64,000 nt of DNA from Stieleria maiorica (GTDB taxonomy: Bacteria; Planctomycetota; Planctomycetia; Pirellulales; Pirellulaceae), in contig NZ_CP036264.1 of NCBI RefSeq assembly GCF_008035925.1, positions 2,412,443-2,476,442 of the forward strand, given 5' to 3'. Below the pieces are notes generated by a model. That model did not search any database. It saw nothing but the letters and a program-made list of their open reading frames with translations, and was not told the DNA's origin. Each line of letters begins with the position of its first letter. Position 1 is the stretch's first letter. Position numbers and translations under genes: made by a program. Shown here piece by piece: positions 9,287 to 43,140 of the stretch.

Positions 9287-9382
9287 GGGTAAGAAGATTT
9301 CGGGGGTAAGAAGATGATGAATCGCGCTCTCCATCCAGTTTCGCCAATTTTCCTACCTCCAAAATCTTCCTACCTCTCCATC
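9287..9382. repeat. dispersed ~80-nt repeat element (copy 1; partial internal duplication of GGTAAGAAGA)
   Basis: The 3' 42 nt (CCAATTTTCCTACCTCCAAAATCTTCCTACCTCTCCATCC) is near-identical to 24178-24217, and the whole element aligns ungapped with 24139-24217. It lies upstream (relative to the - strand) of gene 7499-8968. Confidence 0.8.
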
Positions 9383-9507
9383 CGACACGACGAGGAAACT
9401 GGAGAGGATGGCAGAATGATTCGCACTCAGAATGATTAAATGCCATGGGCGGACAGCTGATCTCAAGGGAGTACAGCGGAATCGAAACCGTCAAAATTCC
9501 ACGCCAA

Positions 9508-23942: not shown

Positions 23943-24137
23943 CTACAGGGGCACCGTGTAAGGTTACGCAGTTCATTAGCCAAATGCCAAAAAAAGAGTA
24001 CAAAAACCCCTGTTTTGACTCAAGAACGCCGCGCCAGATTCACCAAATTGCCTGACTGTTTGCCCACTTCACCAGGCGGAAACTGGGGCCCCAAGGGGAC
24101 AGTTTGCCGGTTGTCGCGGTCGTGCGGATTGGGGCGG

Positions 24138-24217
24138 TGGGTAAGAAGACTATGAATTGCACCACCATTCGATTCAGCCAATTTTCTTGCCTCCAAAATC
24201 TTCCTACCTCTCCACCC
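24138..24217. repeat. dispersed ~80-nt repeat element (copy 2)
   Basis: It aligns ungapped with 9305-9382. It lies upstream (relative to the - strand) of the repetitive secreted protein gene 22281-23942 and just downstream of the metallopeptidase gene. Confidence 0.8.
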
Positions 24218-24255
24218 ACCAACGACCGGCCGAGACGGAGGCTGACACGCGCGAT

Positions 24256-25320
24256 CTATTTGCCGATGTTGGTCATCCATTCGGACTTGGGCAATCGGGC
24301 CAACCAGGCCAGCCACGCGTAGTTGGAGGCCGAGATCATCGCTTCGCTGTGGTTCAGGCTGAGCGCGGCCAATCCGTAGGCGGCTTTCTTGCGACCGCCG
24401 TGCATGATCTTTTCCTTGCCGTTGGCAGGCCCGACCAAGTGTGCCATTTCGTGCACCATCGCATCGGTCATGAAGATGACATCTTTGCCCTTCATGTTTT
24501 TGACGCAGACCTTGACCCGTTTGTAGTCTTCGACCTCCATGTGAAACCCACCCGGAATGGCTTCGGCGAAAATGGCGTGCCCTTCATCATTGGTGCAACT
24601 GCCTCCGGTTCGCACGAACGGTCGGACGGCACGTCGAGCGCGGGGATAGCGATTGAAGATCTTGATGATCTTGTTGATCGCGAGCACCTGTTGCTTTTCG
24701 GTCGACAAACTCTTGATTTTGAAGCAGCGGTCGACCAGATCGTAGCTCGGTTTCTCAGCCTTCGTGCCTTCCAGGTATTTCAACGCGTTGAGCAGTTCGA
24801 CGACGGCGCCGAGCGCCCAGCGTTCGGCGCGATTGACCGCGGCGTTGACGCGCGTCATGACGTCCTTTTCCGAATCCGTCATCGGCACGAACGAACTCGT
24901 CCCCGGTCCGGCAGAGCCTCCGCCGCCTCCCGCCCCGCCGGCCGATCCGCCTCCGGACGCCCCCGCAGCCGGTTGCAATTCGTTCAACTTGGCCAGTGTG
25001 CGATGCCCGGGATCGACACGAGCATCGGCGCGGGCGGCCCCGAAGTGATGTTTCTGGAAGATGTAAATCGCCCGCTCGGTCTTGGGGCCGTTTAGCCCGT
25101 CGACGACCAGAATCGGGTTGGGACGCCCCTTGCCGACCGGGACTTGATTGAGGGCCTGCTGGATCGATTTGACATCGGCACGCAGGTTCTTCCCTTGCCG
25201 CCCGACCGAACCCGATATGTGAACTTGGGACGACGTCCCACCGGGTTCGTCCGAACCACTCGTCGGAGAGCAGCGACCGAACAGCCCATAACCCATGCAC
25301 TCTTGGCGGTGCGCAGACAT
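24256..25320 (-). CDS. putative zinc metallopeptidase (HExxH) with N-terminal peptidoglycan-binding domain
   Basis: DVKSIQQALNQVPV...VDGLNGPKTERAIYIFQ is PG_binding_1-like. A Gly/Ala/Ser linker follows. The C-terminal FMTDAMVHEMAHLVG contains HExxH. The Asp in ...TDAMVHEMAH suggests an aspzincin/M35-like or similar zincin fold. Confidence 0.55.
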   Translation of the reverse strand: MSAHRQECMGYGLFGRCSPTSGSDEPGGTSSQVHISGSVGRQGKNLRADVKSIQQALNQVPVGKGRPNPILVVDGLNGPKTERAIYIFQKHHFGAARADARVDPGHRTLAKLNELQPAAGASGGGSAGGAGGGGGSAGPGTSSFVPMTDSEKDVMTRVNAAVNRAERWALGAVVELLNALKYLEGTKAEKPSYDLVDRCFKIKSLSTEKQQVLAINKIIKIFNRYPRARRAVRPFVRTGGSCTNDEGHAIFAEAIPGGFHMEVEDYKRVKVCVKNMKGKDVIFMTDAMVHEMAHLVGPANGKEKIMHGGRKKAAYGLAALSLNHSEAMISASNYAWLAWLARLPKSEWMTNIGK

Positions 25321-25480
25321 GATTCGTCCCTTGCGTTAACGGTGGCGATGAACCCAGGTTATCGTGGCGAAGGGGGGATTGTTTCGTGCTTTTTCGAAAA
25401 TCTTTCACATCAGTCGCCCGGCCGGCCGGGACGCTTGCCGGTCAGACCGATCGAAAACCCCATCCACCAGAAAACGCCGA

Positions 25481-28400
25481 TCAGGCCGGTTCGTCGCCCG
25501 AAGCGGCGTCGAAGGTGGATTCGATCTCTCGGTAGTTCGCCCGCATCGCGTCAAGTTGCTCTTTTAACCGTTCTAAATCGCGGCCGTTGTCGATCGATTC
25601 GCTCAGGATCGGCCGCAACCATTCTTGCATCAGGTGGAATTGTCCTTTGATCAAATCCGCCAACACGCGAGGGACCTTGTGTTGCACAAAGACCTTTTGA
25701 TCGGGCGGTTGGGCGTTTGCTTGATGTTCGCTGATGCGTTGCAGCTGCTCCCCGGTTGTTTTGAGCGTCGCGGCGAGTTGATCGGCCGAAGCGGTCAGGC
25801 TGTGACGCAGTGAATCGATTCTCGCATCCATGCGTTCTTCGCTGCCGTCCCCGCTGGCCGCGATCGCTCGGGAGATGACCTGGCGAATGGATTCCAATCC
25901 GTCCCGCATCGACGCCAATTGACGCATCAATTGTCCCGCCTGGTCCTCGCTGTCCAGACCCTGCATGCGGATGCTTTCGACGAACGAATACTTGATGCTA
26001 TCCCAGCGTTCTTTCTCTTCCGGTGTCAGGATGCCCATCAGTTCCTTGAACTTCAGCACGTTCGCTTCGTTGTCGGTCGTCAACGTCTGGGCGTCTTGTT
26101 CGTAGCTGCTGACGATCAGCGATTGCAGTTCCTTGGCGTTCATCACGCTGGCGACCTTTTCCGCCATGCGATTCATGTTCCGATAGCTGCCCTGCAATTT
26201 GAACGGCGGCTCGGTGCGATAGGCGTCGGCCTGGGCGGCGCTGCGGATGTAGGCCCGATTGACCCGCAACACGACATCGCGGACTTGAAGCAGTTTCCGC
26301 ATCACTTCGTACATGTCGCGGACCTGGTCGGGCGAGAAGTTGCCTTGCAGTTCGATGCCTTCCATCGTGTCGCGTTCGGCGGCGCGGATGATGGCGCGGG
26401 CATCGTCGGGTGAAGCGGAGGAAAGCGGGGCCAGCGTGGTGTTGCTGGTCAAGCAATTTTCCAGGTAGCTCATCTCGAACGCGTCGGCAGAATCCCCGAT
26501 GATCTCGCCCAGGTTGTAGACGTCGGCGCGGTTGGACAACATGTCCGGAATCTGAAACCGCTCGCCGCTTTCGGTGTAGGGATTGCCGGCCATCACGACC
26601 GACACCCTGCGGCCCCGCAGGTCATAGGTTCTTGTTTTGCCGTTGCTGACGCCCTCGATCTTTCGTGTCGCGTCACACAACGAGATGAACTTTTGCAGGA
26701 ACTCGGGATGGGTGTGTTGGATGTCATCCAAGTACAACATCACGTTGTCGCCCATCTCGAGCGCCAGATTCAATCGTTCGACTTCTTCCTTGGCCGCGGC
26801 GTTGGGTGCTTCGGCGGGGTCGAGGGACGTGACCTGATGCCCGATCGCCGGGCCGTTGATTTTCATGAACACCAACCCGAGTCGATTGGCGATGTATTCC
26901 ATCAATGTCGTTTTGCCGTAACCGGGCGGTGAAATTAGCAGCAGCAACCCCATTCGGTCGGTGCGTTTGTTTTCGCCGGCGGCGCCCATTTGTTTGGCCA
27001 GGTTGTCGCCGATCAACGGCAGGTAGACTTCGTCCAGCAAACGGTTGCGGACAAAGCTGGTCAACACGCGTGGCTTGAATTCGTCCAGCCGCATGTCGTC
27101 GCGGGCGGCGTCGACGAGCCTGGATTTGGTTTCGTTCAGTTTTCGATACCGCGGTACGATGTCCAACATGTAACGCCCGACGCGACGAAGCAGTTCGTGA
27201 TAGTGGACGACCATCTTGCCGCCTTGGATCCGATCGTGGTTGCCCACCAATCCGCCCAGCGAGGTCGCGATTTCGACCTCGGCGATTCGCTGCCGTGAGA
27301 GGTCGCCGGACAAAATGATCCACGCCAGTTCGTCCAGGTAGTAGTGAGCCGGATCGACTTGGTTGTCGCCGTCGTGATTGGCCAAGAACGCTTTCGCCCA
27401 GTTGCGTGCCAAGACAAAGGATCGAACCGGATCGCTTTCATTGCTTTTCATCGCGGCTTCGAGCAGCGTTTGACGATCGACTTCGGGCACCGAGTCTGTG
27501 AACGCTTTGTACAATCCGGCGGCACGGGCGCTGCACACGACCTCGGGTTCGTTGTGCACCAATTGGTCGAACAGATAGTTGGCGATTCCCTCGGAGGTGA
27601 CGTTGTGATCGAACAGCGGCCCCCACAGTGGATGGTCTTGCTGGGCCAATTCGGCCAGCCGCTGACGAAATTCCACCGCCGGTTCGGCCTGCGGGTAGGC
27701 TTTGGCCAATTTCGCAAAACCGCCGATCCAATCGGTCATCGCGTCGCGTGTTTTCGAATCCAGCAGTTTCTCAAACCACAGCAAGCCGGCCGCACGAACG
27801 CTGGGGGGATGCCCCAGCAGGTCGATCCGGGCGTCGATCTGCAGCAGCGCAGCGAGGATCATCGCGGCGTCGTGGTCGTGCACCCCTTTGGCGTAACCCT
27901 GGTCGAATCGCCCACCGATCTTCGATTGAATCCAGCCGGCGTCGACGGCTTCGGCGGTCAACGCCGGGCCGTGTGAGTTTCGGTTGTTGAACAGGTCCAC
28001 GGCCAGGAATTCCGCGCGGTAGACGTCGCGGTTTTCGCTGATCAACTCTTGGTTCCACAGATCCTTGGCGTCCGACAGCGCCGGATCCTCCAGCGGTGCA
28101 AAAAACTGGGTGCCGGTCAGGTGCAGGCACATTGCGTCGTTGCGCAGTACCGTGGTCAGATCAAGCGGCTGGGTGTTGACGGCGAACTTCTGTTTTCCCA
28201 AACGGATGATGTGGCCGCCGTCTTCGTACAGGTCTTGCCGATCCTTCAGCTGACGCACCGAATCCTCGCGGATGGTTTTCATCCGGCTTTGCAGATCGCC
28301 GACCCGCACGGCGTCATCGAGTTCCTGCAGTTGGTCGATGATGTCGCGGACCTTTTCGACCATCAAATCGCCGGCAAAGTAGGCCGCGATGTCGTCGGCC

Positions 28401-30733
28401 GACTCCATCGAACGCACGCGGTTGTCGATGCCTTTGAGGATCCGATCGGCCGCCGAGGCCAGCGACTCGGCGCGGCGGTTGCGTTTCTCGACCAGTTGCA
28501 CCTTGCGTGATTCGAACGCCGCGTAAACCTCTTCGCGGCGGACGGCCAGTTGTTCGATAAAGTCATCGAACTCGGCGAACTTGCCTTCCAGCTCCTCCAG
28601 CTGCACCATCACCTTGGTCAGGTATTCGTCGCAGCGATCGGGGCTGTCGCAGACGTCCAGATAGCCCGACGTGGTTTGTTCCAACAATTTCAATTGGGAC
28701 GCAAACTCGGCGCGGCCTTCCACACCGACCAACTCGGACGTGCGAGCTTTGAGCGCGCTGCGAACACGGTTGACCGAGGCAAACACGTCGCCGATCGCGT
28801 CGATGATTTCGGTGCGTTTGGTCGCGTCGTCGATGCGCAGGTTGCTGACCGTTTCGGTCAACAATTCCAACTGCGATGCGGCGGCGTCGATTTCTTCGCC
28901 CAGCGACTTCGATTCGGCTACCGTCGCGACTTCCGCCACGCGATCCTTGGCCGCGGCGATGCGATTGATGTAGGGATCCAGGGCGCCGGGGGTGAGCAGA
29001 AAGTCGACACAGCGACGGCTCAACCGTTCGCTGCGCTCGGCCGTGGCGGTTTCGAGCTGGTCGACAAGTTCCAAATCGACGTAGCGGAGTTCCTTCAGCC
29101 CCAAAGCGTGCCCGCGCTGAGTTCGCAGTTCGGCCAGCGAGGTCACGAAATCATCGATCGATTCGAAACGGCTGCGTTCGATCTTCTTGATCAGCGCCTC
29201 GATCGCCGCGGAGACCTCTTTGGTTCGCGAATCCGTCTCGCGCCGGGCCCGGACGACCTTGTCGAATTCTTCGACCGCCGCATTGGACGCTTCGCGAATC
29301 TTTTGCAGCGGTTCGGCCAGCTTTTCCGTTTCCGGCTTGTCGATCCAAAAGTAGCTGTCCAGGACGTCGGACGATTTCTTGTTCAGATCGACGTACAGGC
29401 CCTCGTAGCTGTCGTCTTTGTCGATCAGCTGCAGCAGTTCGCTGCACTCGGCCATCCCCCGGACGATCTCCTTGTTGCCGATTTTGAACAGCAGCGAATC
29501 GGTTTGGTTTTCGGGGACGAAATTGGGGCCGGTGAAGGGCGTCTGCCAGATCTGCACGGCGTGGTGTTTTTGGGCTTCTTCTTGGCCGCGGAAACAGACC
29601 ATCTCGCCGCGTTCGAAGAAGGTTTGTCCGTGACAGATCAGCGGCGTGTCGACGGTTTGTTTGATCAGGTTGTAGCGCAGTTGGACGTAGGTCCCGGAGG
29701 TCGGCGCGTAGAACAGGTACAGGTAGTCTTCACCGTTGGAGGCGGCGACGGTGCGTTGATAACGCATGTCGCTGAGTCCGGTTTCGAACCGTTTGAATTC
29801 GCCGGTTTGCAGGTAGTAGCCGCCGGGGAAGATCAGCCCTTGGTCGCCCGGCAGCATGACGCAGGCCTCGGCGATTTCGTCCAATCGGATCGCCTGCTGG
29901 ATCTTGCTGTTGAAAACCAGGTACCGGAAGCGGTCTTCCTGGTAAGGTTTCATTTTCAGCAACACCAGGTTGCCCAAGACCGCGTAGTAGATTTCCGCGT
30001 CATCGAGCGTTTGGTCGGGGTTATCGACCGGTTCGGCATAGATGCCTTCGCCGCTGCTGGTGTTGTTTTCGACCTTGATGGTCAGGTCACCGCCGACGGT
30101 TTCCACAAACACGATGTCTTCGATCGAGATGTGGGGGTGTTCACCGTAGTGATGTTGATCGCGGGTCGTGCGCGTCCAGCGAAACTCGTGCTGGGCGGGC
30201 TCTTTGACTTCGTGTTCGCTGCGGTTGTCGATATACTCGATCGCATCGGACGTGACCCGCCATTTAAACGACTTGATGTCGCGGTTCGTCTTGCCGACCT
30301 GAAACACCATGTGCAGGATCGGGCCGGAGCGATAGAACCGTGAAAACCGCGTGTCTTTGTAGAACCGATACAGCTCGCTGAAATCGTTGTGGAAACGCGA
30401 ATCACCGATCAGATCCAACGTCGCCTCGTGGAACTGGTTGTCTTCGAACCGGTAGGCCGAAAAAACATCCGAGAGTTCGATTTCCGTCTTCAATCCGAAC
30501 TGGACGTTGTATCCGAACAGGAACTGATCGCCGACGGAAACCAGGTCGCGCGGGACGCAGTTGTGTTCGGTGGTGACACGTTCGGTCGAGATCAACTTGG
30601 TCTCGATATTGCCAAAGACTTCCGCCCGCGACTCGTTCAGTTTGGCAAGCCGGGAACGCAGGTCGTCGGCGGCATCACGCAAACGATTGCGGAGAACTTC
30701 GTAGGTGCCGGCGGCGAGTTGGGAGTCGGGCAT
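25481..30733 (-). CDS. 1750-aa coiled-coil protein with one AAA+ ATPase domain (AAA_5/MoxR-dynein-like) near residues ~1255-1420
   Basis: Walker A is LLLISPPGYGKTTLMEYIANRLG (coding ~26905-26928). Walker B is NVMLYLDDIQ (~26717-26746). The sensor/Arg-finger-like region is SVVMAGNPYTESGERFQIPDMLSNRADVYNLGE. About 1200 aa of predicted helical/coiled-coil sequence lie N-terminal and ~330 aa C-terminal. There is no TM segment. Confidence 0.75.
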   Translation of the reverse strand: MPDSQLAAGTYEVLRNRLRDAADDLRSRLAKLNESRAEVFGNIETKLISTERVTTEHNCVPRDLVSVGDQFLFGYNVQFGLKTEIELSDVFSAYRFEDNQFHEATLDLIGDSRFHNDFSELYRFYKDTRFSRFYRSGPILHMVFQVGKTNRDIKSFKWRVTSDAIEYIDNRSEHEVKEPAQHEFRWTRTTRDQHHYGEHPHISIEDIVFVETVGGDLTIKVENNTSSGEGIYAEPVDNPDQTLDDAEIYYAVLGNLVLLKMKPYQEDRFRYLVFNSKIQQAIRLDEIAEACVMLPGDQGLIFPGGYYLQTGEFKRFETGLSDMRYQRTVAASNGEDYLYLFYAPTSGTYVQLRYNLIKQTVDTPLICHGQTFFERGEMVCFRGQEEAQKHHAVQIWQTPFTGPNFVPENQTDSLLFKIGNKEIVRGMAECSELLQLIDKDDSYEGLYVDLNKKSSDVLDSYFWIDKPETEKLAEPLQKIREASNAAVEEFDKVVRARRETDSRTKEVSAAIEALIKKIERSRFESIDDFVTSLAELRTQRGHALGLKELRYVDLELVDQLETATAERSERLSRRCVDFLLTPGALDPYINRIAAAKDRVAEVATVAESKSLGEEIDAAASQLELLTETVSNLRIDDATKRTEIIDAIGDVFASVNRVRSALKARTSELVGVEGRAEFASQLKLLEQTTSGYLDVCDSPDRCDEYLTKVMVQLEELEGKFAEFDDFIEQLAVRREEVYAAFESRKVQLVEKRNRRAESLASAADRILKGIDNRVRSMESADDIAAYFAGDLMVEKVRDIIDQLQELDDAVRVGDLQSRMKTIREDSVRQLKDRQDLYEDGGHIIRLGKQKFAVNTQPLDLTTVLRNDAMCLHLTGTQFFAPLEDPALSDAKDLWNQELISENRDVYRAEFLAVDLFNNRNSHGPALTAEAVDAGWIQSKIGGRFDQGYAKGVHDHDAAMILAALLQIDARIDLLGHPPSVRAAGLLWFEKLLDSKTRDAMTDWIGGFAKLAKAYPQAEPAVEFRQRLAELAQQDHPLWGPLFDHNVTSEGIANYLFDQLVHNEPEVVCSARAAGLYKAFTDSVPEVDRQTLLEAAMKSNESDPVRSFVLARNWAKAFLANHDGDNQVDPAHYYLDELAWIILSGDLSRQRIAEVEIATSLGGLVGNHDRIQGGKMVVHYHELLRRVGRYMLDIVPRYRKLNETKSRLVDAARDDMRLDEFKPRVLTSFVRNRLLDEVYLPLIGDNLAKQMGAAGENKRTDRMGLLLLISPPGYGKTTLMEYIANRLGLVFMKINGPAIGHQVTSLDPAEAPNAAAKEEVERLNLALEMGDNVMLYLDDIQHTHPEFLQKFISLCDATRKIEGVSNGKTRTYDLRGRRVSVVMAGNPYTESGERFQIPDMLSNRADVYNLGEIIGDSADAFEMSYLENCLTSNTTLAPLSSASPDDARAIIRAAERDTMEGIELQGNFSPDQVRDMYEVMRKLLQVRDVVLRVNRAYIRSAAQADAYRTEPPFKLQGSYRNMNRMAEKVASVMNAKELQSLIVSSYEQDAQTLTTDNEANVLKFKELMGILTPEEKERWDSIKYSFVESIRMQGLDSEDQAGQLMRQLASMRDGLESIRQVISRAIAASGDGSEERMDARIDSLRHSLTASADQLAATLKTTGEQLQRISEHQANAQPPDQKVFVQHKVPRVLADLIKGQFHLMQEWLRPILSESIDNGRDLERLKEQLDAMRANYREIESTFDAASGDEPA

Positions 30734-30926
30734 GGATTGGCTCCCGGAGGGTGATGGGGGAAGCAGGCGGCGAATTCAGCTGACGGAATCAAGGGGGCAT
30801 CGGGGCTGAGTCCCGGGCCGCCGGTGGCGGCACAGGAAGGCTTCGCCGGACTCGTTTCACAGAGCGGAGGGCAAAGCGAGAGCACGGCCCCTCGCGGTCG
30901 ATCGCGAGGGGCCGCGACGCCGCCGA

Positions 30927-33077
30927 TTACGCTAAACCGCCTTTCAGTTTTTTACCATTGTCGGAACTGCCGCCCAGCAGTCGGCTGGTTTTTTGGTCGG
31001 CGATGTTGGCCGATCCGGCCATCCCGAGCAGACTGGTCAATTGCGATCGCATGTCGTCGGTGTCGGCCATGCCCATCATCTTGGCGATCAACGCCGCGAT
31101 GGACAGGTCTTTGACGCCGTCGGTGTCCAAGTTGAACTGTCCGATCATTTTCGTCAGCTGATCACGAAAGTACTCCGCGTTGCCATCGAAGAACGTGTCC
31201 TTGATGTCGGTCGCGACGCGGCTGTTGTAGACGAATCGGTCGATCGCTTTTCCGCCCTTGACGGCCGAAGTGATCTGGTCGAAGAACTCGCCGTCGCCGC
31301 CGACGATGTCGATGCGAGCGGCCTTGAGTGCTTCGCCGACCACACCGGCTTGGCTTTCGGCGATGCCACGCTGGGCATCGATCGCCGCGATCTCGACTTC
31401 CTTTTCCTTGTTCAGCTTCAGCTTGAACTCTTCGTGTTCCTTTCCGACGCTGTCGAAGATCTTCATCGCTTCGGCCTTTTCGGTGATACCGGTCGCCTCG
31501 CTGCGATACTTTTCCAGTTCGACGCTGGCTTCGGCCATGCCTTGTTTTTCGACCGCGGCCGCTTTGGCTTCGATGCCCTTGGCTTCGGCAACCGCTTTCT
31601 TTTCCAGGACGGTCGCTTGGGCCGACCCTTCTTTTTCCAGGCTGACCGCTTTGGCTTCTTGCACGCGTGCTTCGGCCAATCCGGCCGCAGCGGCCTTGGC
31701 GGCGTCGGCTTCGGCCAGCATCTTGGCGGCCGCCGTTTCTTTCTCCGCCGCATCGCGTTTGGCTTCCGCCTCGATGCGGATCTTTTCGGCCAACAGCTCG
31801 CTGGATTCCTTTTCCGCTTGGGCCAACTTGGTTTGGCGAATCAGCTCTTCTTCGGCCTTCATTTCCGCCGCAGTGATTTGAACCTTTTTTGCTCGCTCGG
31901 CCTTGGCGATTTCTTCGGTGTCCTTGATGCGTTCTTGCTCTTCGACGACCGCTCGTTCGACGGCGACGCGTTCGCGAATCACCTCTTGGATGTTTCGCTT
32001 TTCGGTTTCGATCGCCTTTTCCTTTTCGACTTCGGCGACGCCGACCACCCGCAGGCGTTCGGTGGCTTCCAGGTCACGGTCTCGATTGACGCGTTCGAGT
32101 TCGACGGCGTCGGTTTTTTCCTTGTTCCGCTGGGCGACCAGGATTTGACGGTCTCGGTTCTCCGAGGCGATGCCGAGTTCTTCTTCGGTCGCGATCCGGG
32201 CCCGTTCGGCTTCCAGTCGCTGTTCCTCTTCGACCTTTCGGGCCGAGGCCTGTTCGCGGGCGGTGATTTCGGCGATTTCGCGTTTCTGTTTCTCAACCGC
32301 TTCGACGCGTTGGCGCTCCAACGCGAGGATGGTCTCTTCGGCTTCGACGTCCTGCTTCTTGAGCGTCTTTTCCTTGTCGCGGGTGAACTGGTTTTCCTTG
32401 ACCTTTTCGGCACTGGTCAGTTCGGTGATCTTCTTGATCCCCTCGGCGTCCAGGATGTTGTTGGGCGAGAGCAGTTCCAGGGGAGTTTGTTCCAGATAAT
32501 CGATCGCCGCGTCGTCGAGCCGGTATCCGTTCAAGTCGGTGCCGATGACCTTCAGGATTTCGTCCTTGAACTTGTCGCGTTCGTCGTACAGTTCGACAAA
32601 GTCAAATTGCTTGCCGACCGTCTTTAATGCTTCGGAGAATTTGGCGTCGAACAGTTCACGAAGTGTTTCAAGTTCCGAACAGCGACGGGCGCCGATCGAT
32701 GCGGCGACCTCCTTCATCTCTTCTTCGCTGCTGTCGACGCGGATGAAGAAGGCGACTTTGATGTCCGCGCGGATGTTGTCTTTACAGATCAAACCTTCGC
32801 TGCCCTGGCGGCTGATTTCAAAACTTTTCAGCGACAGGTCCATCAGTTCGTAACGATGGATCACCGGGACGATCAACATGCCGTTGCCGGTGACGACATC
32901 CATCTTGCCCATCCCGGTTTTGACGATCGCTTGGTCCGGGCCGACCACCATGTAACACTTCTTGATGGTCGCGACGATGCCTAGAAGCACCACAAAGAGA
33001 ATCCCGACGCCGATCAGGACACTCGTCAGCAGGCCTTCGGCCAGCAGCGGGGTCGCAAGAGTACTCCAAGTCATCAC
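30927..33077 (-). CDS. flotillin-like SPFH/Band-7 family protein (YqiK/FloT-type)
   Basis: An N-terminal TM anchor is followed by an SPFH domain (MVVGPDQAIVKTGMGK...VPVIHRYELMDLSLKSFEI...) and then a long Glu/Ala/Lys/Arg-rich flotillin-type coiled coil (EA repeats). The C-terminal is Gly-rich. It overlaps the upstream NfeD-like gene by 4 nt (ATGA). Confidence 0.85.
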   Translation of the reverse strand: MMTWSTLATPLLAEGLLTSVLIGVGILFVVLLGIVATIKKCYMVVGPDQAIVKTGMGKMDVVTGNGMLIVPVIHRYELMDLSLKSFEISRQGSEGLICKDNIRADIKVAFFIRVDSSEEEMKEVAASIGARRCSELETLRELFDAKFSEALKTVGKQFDFVELYDERDKFKDEILKVIGTDLNGYRLDDAAIDYLEQTPLELLSPNNILDAEGIKKITELTSAEKVKENQFTRDKEKTLKKQDVEAEETILALERQRVEAVEKQKREIAEITAREQASARKVEEEQRLEAERARIATEEELGIASENRDRQILVAQRNKEKTDAVELERVNRDRDLEATERLRVVGVAEVEKEKAIETEKRNIQEVIRERVAVERAVVEEQERIKDTEEIAKAERAKKVQITAAEMKAEEELIRQTKLAQAEKESSELLAEKIRIEAEAKRDAAEKETAAAKMLAEADAAKAAAAGLAEARVQEAKAVSLEKEGSAQATVLEKKAVAEAKGIEAKAAAVEKQGMAEASVELEKYRSEATGITEKAEAMKIFDSVGKEHEEFKLKLNKEKEVEIAAIDAQRGIAESQAGVVGEALKAARIDIVGGDGEFFDQITSAVKGGKAIDRFVYNSRVATDIKDTFFDGNAEYFRDQLTKMIGQFNLDTDGVKDLSIAALIAKMMGMADTDDMRSQLTSLLGMAGSANIADQKTSRLLGGSSDNGKKLKGGLA

Positions 33078-33820
33078 GATTGGTTCTCCGGTTCAAGTTC
33101 AGTAACGGTGTAGATCCGTTTGGTTGGGTCAAACTCTGTAATCCGCACTTCCGTCCCTTTCGGAATCACTGCCCCCGTTGTGCGGACATTTAACAAAAGC
33201 GGAGCGGCATTCGTCCGAAACTTAGCTTGCCCAAAGCTGGGGGATGCCTCGATCGACGAAATTTCGCATGTCGCCCCGAGCAACCGGTCTTTGTCGTAAC
33301 CGGGCTCGGGCGAAAACTTTCCGACCACCGGCTGGGTGACGAACTTGGTCGCCACCACGGCGATGACAAAGTTGCGCGCCGCCAGCAGGACCGAAGGCAG
33401 CCAGATCGGTTGATACCGTGAGGCGTCGAATCCGTGCCAGAGGCCGTAGGAGACCATCCAGAACAGGACGGTGAACGCCCCGAACCAGATCACCAACGGC
33501 ACGCGTCCGAAGTTGGACCAGCGGACCGTCGTGGCCGCAAACCCGCCCAGGAAATCGAGGCCGACCGGATGTCCGACTTCGGCATCGCCGCCGGCGACAT
33601 CGAAATCGACCGCGTCCAAATCCGGCGTGCCGAGGTCCACGTCCATGTCCAAGTCGGCGTCCAGATCGATGTCAGGCGCCCCCAAATCCAATTCGATCAA
33701 CCCGACCAAGGCCACCAGGGTGTACATCACCATCAGGCAAACCAGAATCGACGCCGGCCAGACGGGACCGACGAACATTCGATTGGCGAGATCTGTCAGC
33801 ACTTCTTCCACAGCGGTCAT
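33074..33820 (-). CDS. NfeD/YqiJ-like membrane protein (flotillin-partner, C-terminal OB-fold-like)
   Basis: Several TM helices are followed by a C-terminal soluble beta-rich segment (GATCEISSIEASPSFGQAKFRTNAAPLLLNVRTTGAVIPKGTEVRITEFDPTKRIYTV), typical of the NfeD short homologs found immediately upstream of flotillin (yqiJ-yqiK, yuaF-floT arrangement). An acidic DLD-rich loop is present. Confidence 0.6.
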   Translation of the reverse strand: MTAVEEVLTDLANRMFVGPVWPASILVCLMVMYTLVALVGLIELDLGAPDIDLDADLDMDVDLGTPDLDAVDFDVAGGDAEVGHPVGLDFLGGFAATTVRWSNFGRVPLVIWFGAFTVLFWMVSYGLWHGFDASRYQPIWLPSVLLAARNFVIAVVATKFVTQPVVGKFSPEPGYDKDRLLGATCEISSIEASPSFGQAKFRTNAAPLLLNVRTTGAVIPKGTEVRITEFDPTKRIYTVTELEPENQS

Positions 33821-43015: not shown

Positions 43016-43140
43016 GTCGCCGTCCTCTCCGAGGTCGGCGTCAGGGAAGAGCTTCGCTTTTCGAGGGCGCCGAGTTCGGAGAACACGGCGACATTCGGCC
43101 GCAATGCGTAGCGGAAGCCGCCAAGGCTTTCGGCTCCCCG
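43016..43140. repeat. composite REP-like element downstream of tRNA-Ser
   Basis: The inverted pair GTCGCCGTCCTCTCCGAGGTCGGCG / CGCCGAGTTCGGAGAACACGGCGAC is followed by the module GCGTAGCGGAAGCCGCCAAGGCTTTCGGC. Confidence 0.7.

Follow-up and report, generated by a model that had tools for sequence, protein, structure and literature searches.

A conserved YqiJ-like, flotillin and DUF3686 ATPase gene trio in Stieleria maiorica, with a lineage-specific peptidase gene beside it

The window analysed is a 64,000-nucleotide stretch of the Stieleria maiorica genome, and the locus described here consists of four open reading frames, all on the minus strand (Table 1). The ORF list bears out the first-pass annotation in placing four co-directional genes here, and its short gaps of about 190 and 160 nt were measured as 193 nt between the flotillin and ATPase genes and 160 nt between the ATPase and peptidase genes. 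The 4-nt ATGA overlap that it gave for the first two genes stands only in part. The junction reads GTGATGA, with the stop codon of the yqiJ-like gene (TGA) at 33076-33074; a 4-nt overlap requires a flotillin start at GTG 33077, and its sequence is then GTGA, not ATGA. With a start at ATG 33074 the overlap is 1 nt, and this start corresponds to the length of the 715-aa database flotillin and to the gene calls in a relative.

Table 1. Features of the locus; positions are those of the window.
Feature	Position	Strand	Description	Basis
yqiJ/NfeD-like gene	33074..33820	-	248 aa	ORF list
YqiK-type flotillin gene (SPFH family)	30927..33077	-	715-716 aa	ORF list
Perfect 14-bp G+C-rich hairpin	30883..30916	-	Directly 3' of the flotillin stop	RNA fold
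Giant AAA+ ATPase gene	25481..30733	-	1750 aa	ORF list
N-terminal beta-propeller of the ATPase	29543..30598	-	Residues ~46-397, DUF3686 core	AF2 model
Coiled-coil/helical region of the ATPase	28235..29476	-	Residues ~420-833 (about 400), includes DUF7902	AF2 model
Single AAA+ module of the ATPase	26174..26977	-	Residues ~1253-1520	Pfam AAA and AAA_5
PG_binding_1-like and HExxH metallopeptidase gene	24256..25320	-	354 aa	ORF list
Insertion of ~1.35 kb	24131..25480		Peptidase gene and one dispersed repeat	DNA alignment to relatives
Dispersed intergenic repeat, family 1	33956..33988		Copies at 1166-1198 and, inverted, 43102-43139	Repeat search
Dispersed repeat, second unrelated family	24165-24217		Copy at 9331-9383	Repeat search

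The yqiJ-like product has three hydrophobic stretches (residues ~14-48, 105-128 and 138-162 by hydropathy, with overlapping windows merged), a loop of acidic D-x-D repeats, and an NfeD-type domain at its C-terminus. Its assignment as NfeD/YqiJ is sub-threshold in Pfam (YqiJ_N, E=0.0038) and is backed by profile comparison with E. coli YqiJ (hhalign probability 96.5%, E=7.5e-10); YqiJ_N is recognised in 10 of 18 cross-phylum homologues.

The flotillin finds no match of its own in Pfam or NCBIfam, even at E<=10, and its SPFH/flotillin assignment is nevertheless borne out by its relationship to E. coli YqiK (BLASTP E=3e-49, with 31% identity across 452 aa; hhalign probability 100%). It is composed of an N-terminal membrane anchor—a single hydrophobic stretch at residues 6-47 by hydropathy—followed by the SPFH domain, a long coiled coil rich in E, A, K and R, and a conserved C-terminal domain. 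Many residues in the C-terminal 177 aa are invariant across phyla, and this segment has no match to the C-terminus of YqiK (E=0.076); on these sequence comparisons the domain is specific to the ATPase-linked clade. The E. coli yqiJ-yqiK pair (yuaF-floT in B. subtilis) is homologous to the first two genes and has the same order, but in E. coli no ATPase gene lies downstream, and YqiK, at 553 aa, is the shorter protein and has no counterpart of the conserved C-terminal domain. Whereas YqiK is 31% identical to the window flotillin, the ATPase-linked flotillins of other phyla are ~38-53% identical to it, with medians of 38% in Gammaproteobacteria, 42% in Actinomycetota and Deinococcota, and ~50-53% in the other phyla.

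The description of the third product as a 1750-aa coiled-coil protein with a single AAA+ domain is supported both by Pfam, which recognises DUF3686 (E=2.5e-193), DUF7902 (residues 584-666), and one AAA module, and by an AF2 model with a mean pLDDT of 80.6. The protein is soluble, with no hydrophobic segment in the hydropathy profile. A helix at residues 5-40 precedes the propeller region, which is all-beta with ~27 strands; Foldseek matches it to 6- and 7-bladed propellers, including CyRPA, the KLHDC3 kelch domain, PON1 and prolyl oligopeptidase. The long helices that follow span residues 420-438, 446-460, 473-520, 526-548, 554-579, 586-599, 605-631, 637-694, 698-718, 723-774 and 779-833. The AAA+ module has a Walker A motif PPGYGKT (G1271-T1275), a Walker B motif LYLDD (D1336, D1337), and candidates for sensor-1 (N1384), the arginine finger (R1402) and sensor-2 (R1518); the motif residues are invariant in 30 family members at 30-66% identity. 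The family is large, with more than 5,800 homologues in a protein search, 980 clusters at 50% identity, and occurrence in at least 598 species genomes.

The first-pass annotation had mentioned 'DNA repair ATPase' genes beside flotillin genes, correctly according to database records and gene neighbourhoods, and the S. maiorica database protein that is 100% identical to this ATPase is named 'ATPase involved in DNA repair'. Such a name, used in both Pfam and NCBI, would make the protein a membrane-tethered DNA-repair ATPase of the SbcC/Rad50/SMC type, in keeping with its long modelled coiled coil and with weak matches to the RuvB P-loop. However, its AAA+ domain is single and internal rather than a split ABC-type head, no nuclease or DNA-binding domain was detected in it, the RuvB matches are confined to the P-loop (23 bits against a family cut-off of 282), its obligate neighbours are membrane proteins, and literature support for the name was not found. 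We regard a repair function as extremely improbable; the label of the Pfam DUF3686 family is a misnomer.

The neighbourhoods of related ATPase genes were compared using 66 loci with enough upstream DNA, drawn from ten phyla as assigned from record titles and annotations: Planctomycetota, Bacteroidota, Verrucomicrobiota, Desulfobacterota, Kiritimatiellota, Omnitrophota, Clostridia, Gammaproteobacteria, Actinomycetota and Deinococcota. The flotillin gene lies directly upstream of the ATPase gene on the same strand in 63 of the 66; in the other three the genes upstream of the ATPase are unrelated. A yqiJ-like gene precedes the flotillin in 59 of the 66, and small unrelated genes stand between flotillin and ATPase in ~22 loci. 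The operon is thus conserved across at least ten bacterial phyla, and the gene neighbourhood is not, for these three genes, peculiar to this genome. Identities of the flotillins and ATPases to the window proteins co-vary (r=0.95 in 67 loci; r=0.80 in the 60 loci whose ATPase is less than 55% identical), although shared vertical descent alone would give the same. The yqiJ-like gene, flotillin and ATPase are a real conserved functional unit.

This distribution bears on the suggestion of an anti-phage or abortive-infection role for the locus. In its favour, defence systems often pair a large ATPase with a membrane protein, the trio is present on some megaplasmids, and in two genomes genes for an AbiEii toxin and a DMP19-like protein are inserted inside the locus. 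Against this, PADLOC returned negligible matches (LmuB at E=2.5e-4 with no significant stretch, and IetA at E=0.0036 to the P-loop only), no phage copies of the trio were found, the flanking genes are housekeeping or variable rather than defence islands, and the recurrent partner is PspA. Between phyla the flotillin and the ATPase each retain some 40-50% identity and their divergence runs in parallel, a pattern not typical of defence genes, and conservation this strong seems unlike that of variable, patchily distributed defence genes. A defence role is highly improbable, and no defence-system signal supports it.

Nor is the operon undescribed, or of a non-established type, as had been claimed. 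Ravi et al. (Ravi, Anantharaman, Aravind, Gennaro et al., mSystems 2024; PMC11237479) reported an operon of CesT/Tir, PspA, YqiJ/YuaF, band-7/flotillin and AAA+ genes, with Dokdonia donghaensis ANH61663.1 as example, distinguished this CesT/Tir-PspA-linked form from an 'abbreviated' three-gene form, and proposed a role in membrane dynamics or chaperoning. Their account is a single paragraph with neither structure nor experiment; it does not name the Pfam family, and DUF3686 is absent from the supplement. We likewise found no experiment in the literature on any member of the trio. The full form with the same ATPase family was recovered here in 16-18 Bacteroidota loci, in which the trio is directly preceded by CesT_Tir_1 and PspA genes; on plasmid pQBR103 a PspA/DUF2491/DUF350/DUF1190/GSP-synthase cluster stands before it. 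The match to the published operon is by description. No PspA or CesT gene is present in the Stieleria window, and the locus, with its order of yqiJ-like gene, YqiK-type flotillin and DUF3686 AAA+ ATPase, is therefore the abbreviated form; any link to PspA in Stieleria would be indirect. It differs from the full operon both in lacking the CesT/Tir-PspA pair and in having a lineage-specific peptidase gene downstream.

The peptidase falls just short of the Pfam PG_binding_1 cut-off (22.1 bits against 23), and its HExxH residues (H290, E291 and H294) are invariant in 19 homologues. The first-pass annotation had joined it to the trio as one membrane-anchored, envelope-remodelling machine, and the gene is indeed co-directional with the ATPase gene across the short gap noted above, with no canonical terminator called between them. 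Their adjacency is kept in three genomes of the Stieleria clade—S. maiorica, S. mannarensis and Rhodopirellula sp. SM50—and only there: the peptidase gene is absent from 86 of 87 related loci scanned, and it is absent from the syntenic loci of S. tagensis and Roseiconus lacunae, where the surrounding gene order is kept and a YTV-repeat gene (72% protein identity between the species) directly follows the ATPase gene. In DNA alignments, what the ATPase-YTV spacer of these relatives shares with the window is confined to the final ~260 nt ahead of the YTV gene. A mere 51 homologues of the peptidase were found among 5.8 billion proteins, against the thousands for the ATPase, and for those at 67% and 39% identity the gene neighbourhood is an unrelated one. 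The protein has no transmembrane segment by hydropathy, and no N-terminal signal peptide for delivery to the cell wall is evident by eye. The comparative data already largely refute a four-gene machine, which we consider highly improbable; the peptidase gene is a recent, lineage-specific, unrelated insertion outside the conserved system.

Several known systems resemble the trio in part. SPFH cages enclose the AAA+ protease FtsH, and HflK/C-FtsH is likewise a functional pairing, at the inner membrane, of an SPFH-family scaffold and an AAA+ ATPase; FtsH, however, is anchored in the membrane, is a member of the classical AAA clade and has a protease domain, whereas the ATPase here is soluble, with a propeller and coiled coil and no protease domain, and homology is limited to the SPFH and AAA+ folds. 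A resemblance to MoxR/AAA_5-type and RuvB-type AAA+ ATPases is seen in the alignment of positions 2-126 of 139 of Pfam AAA_5 (E=1.2e-4), in the presence of RuvB and of NorQ, a member of the MoxR family, among the stronger fold matches, in one orthologue named 'MoxR-like ATPase' in NCBI, and in a low-confidence beta-hairpin before the sensor-1 strand in the model. ESCRT-III/Vps4, with PspA as bacterial ESCRT-III, offers a further parallel in that genes for a membrane-bound polymer and for an AAA+ ATPase lie side by side, and PspA genes recur next to the trio, but the ATPase lacks an MIT domain, a Vps4-type architecture or a close sequence relationship to Vps4, and according to a 2025 review (PMC7619361) bacteria appear to have no Vps4-like ATPase.

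We propose that in the abbreviated trio the ATPase probably remodels assemblies of flotillin, and possibly of PspA, in the service of membrane maintenance, with the peptidase an unrelated insertion. The flotillin, held by its N-terminal hydrophobic segment, and its YqiJ/NfeD-like partner with three transmembrane segments would form an SPFH scaffold on the cytoplasmic side of the inner membrane. Onto this scaffold the soluble ATPase would dock by means of its beta-propeller and long coiled coil, with the clade-specific C-terminal domain of the flotillin as the likely site, and it would use ATP to drive the assembly, disassembly or remodelling of the flotillin polymer or of its clients. In loci that also encode a CesT/Tir-PspA pair, it would act on the ESCRT-III-like PspA polymer too. 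Such a module would serve to maintain the membrane under envelope stress, by a broad logic akin to that of FtsH inside HflK/C cages or of Vps4 on ESCRT-III. The link to membrane stress is given by the PspA genes beside the trio in Bacteroidota and on pQBR103 and by the role that Ravi et al. proposed.

The ATPase might instead act as a chaperone or unfoldase that extracts membrane-protein clients in flotillin microdomains, in the manner of HflK/C-FtsH without the protease domain. The SPFH-enclosed FtsH is a precedent, beta-propellers are common substrate- or partner-binding modules, and S. aureus flotillin microdomains are reported to stabilise unfolded proteins (PMC11222466). We consider this rather unlikely. 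No aromatic pore-loop motif was seen by eye in the ATPase, which argues against a classical threading unfoldase; Pfam shows no protease or other effector domain; fold searches with the AAA+ module give weak, generic AAA+ matches that single out no clade; and the Walker B motif ends in D-D in place of the usual D-E, so that ATP turnover could be slow or switch-like. The pore-loop, fold-match and Walker B observations count against scaffold remodelling as well.

The unit of NfeD-like protein, flotillin and ATPase is what endures of the first-pass interpretation; its novelty, the inclusion of the peptidase, defence and the repeat boundaries do not. Repeats do flank the locus, but they belong to two ordinary dispersed intergenic families and are not the ends of an element. 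A family-1 copy stands after the peptidase gene instead in S. mannarensis, which indicates that the repeats move independently of the locus.

The 193-nt spacer between the flotillin and ATPase genes is strongly structured (RNA fold -96.9 kcal/mol, z=-5.55). No U-tract follows the hairpin that it contains, and a terminator scan made no call. The hairpin is kept in S. mannarensis, not in strain SM50, and may serve as an attenuator or transcript stabiliser.

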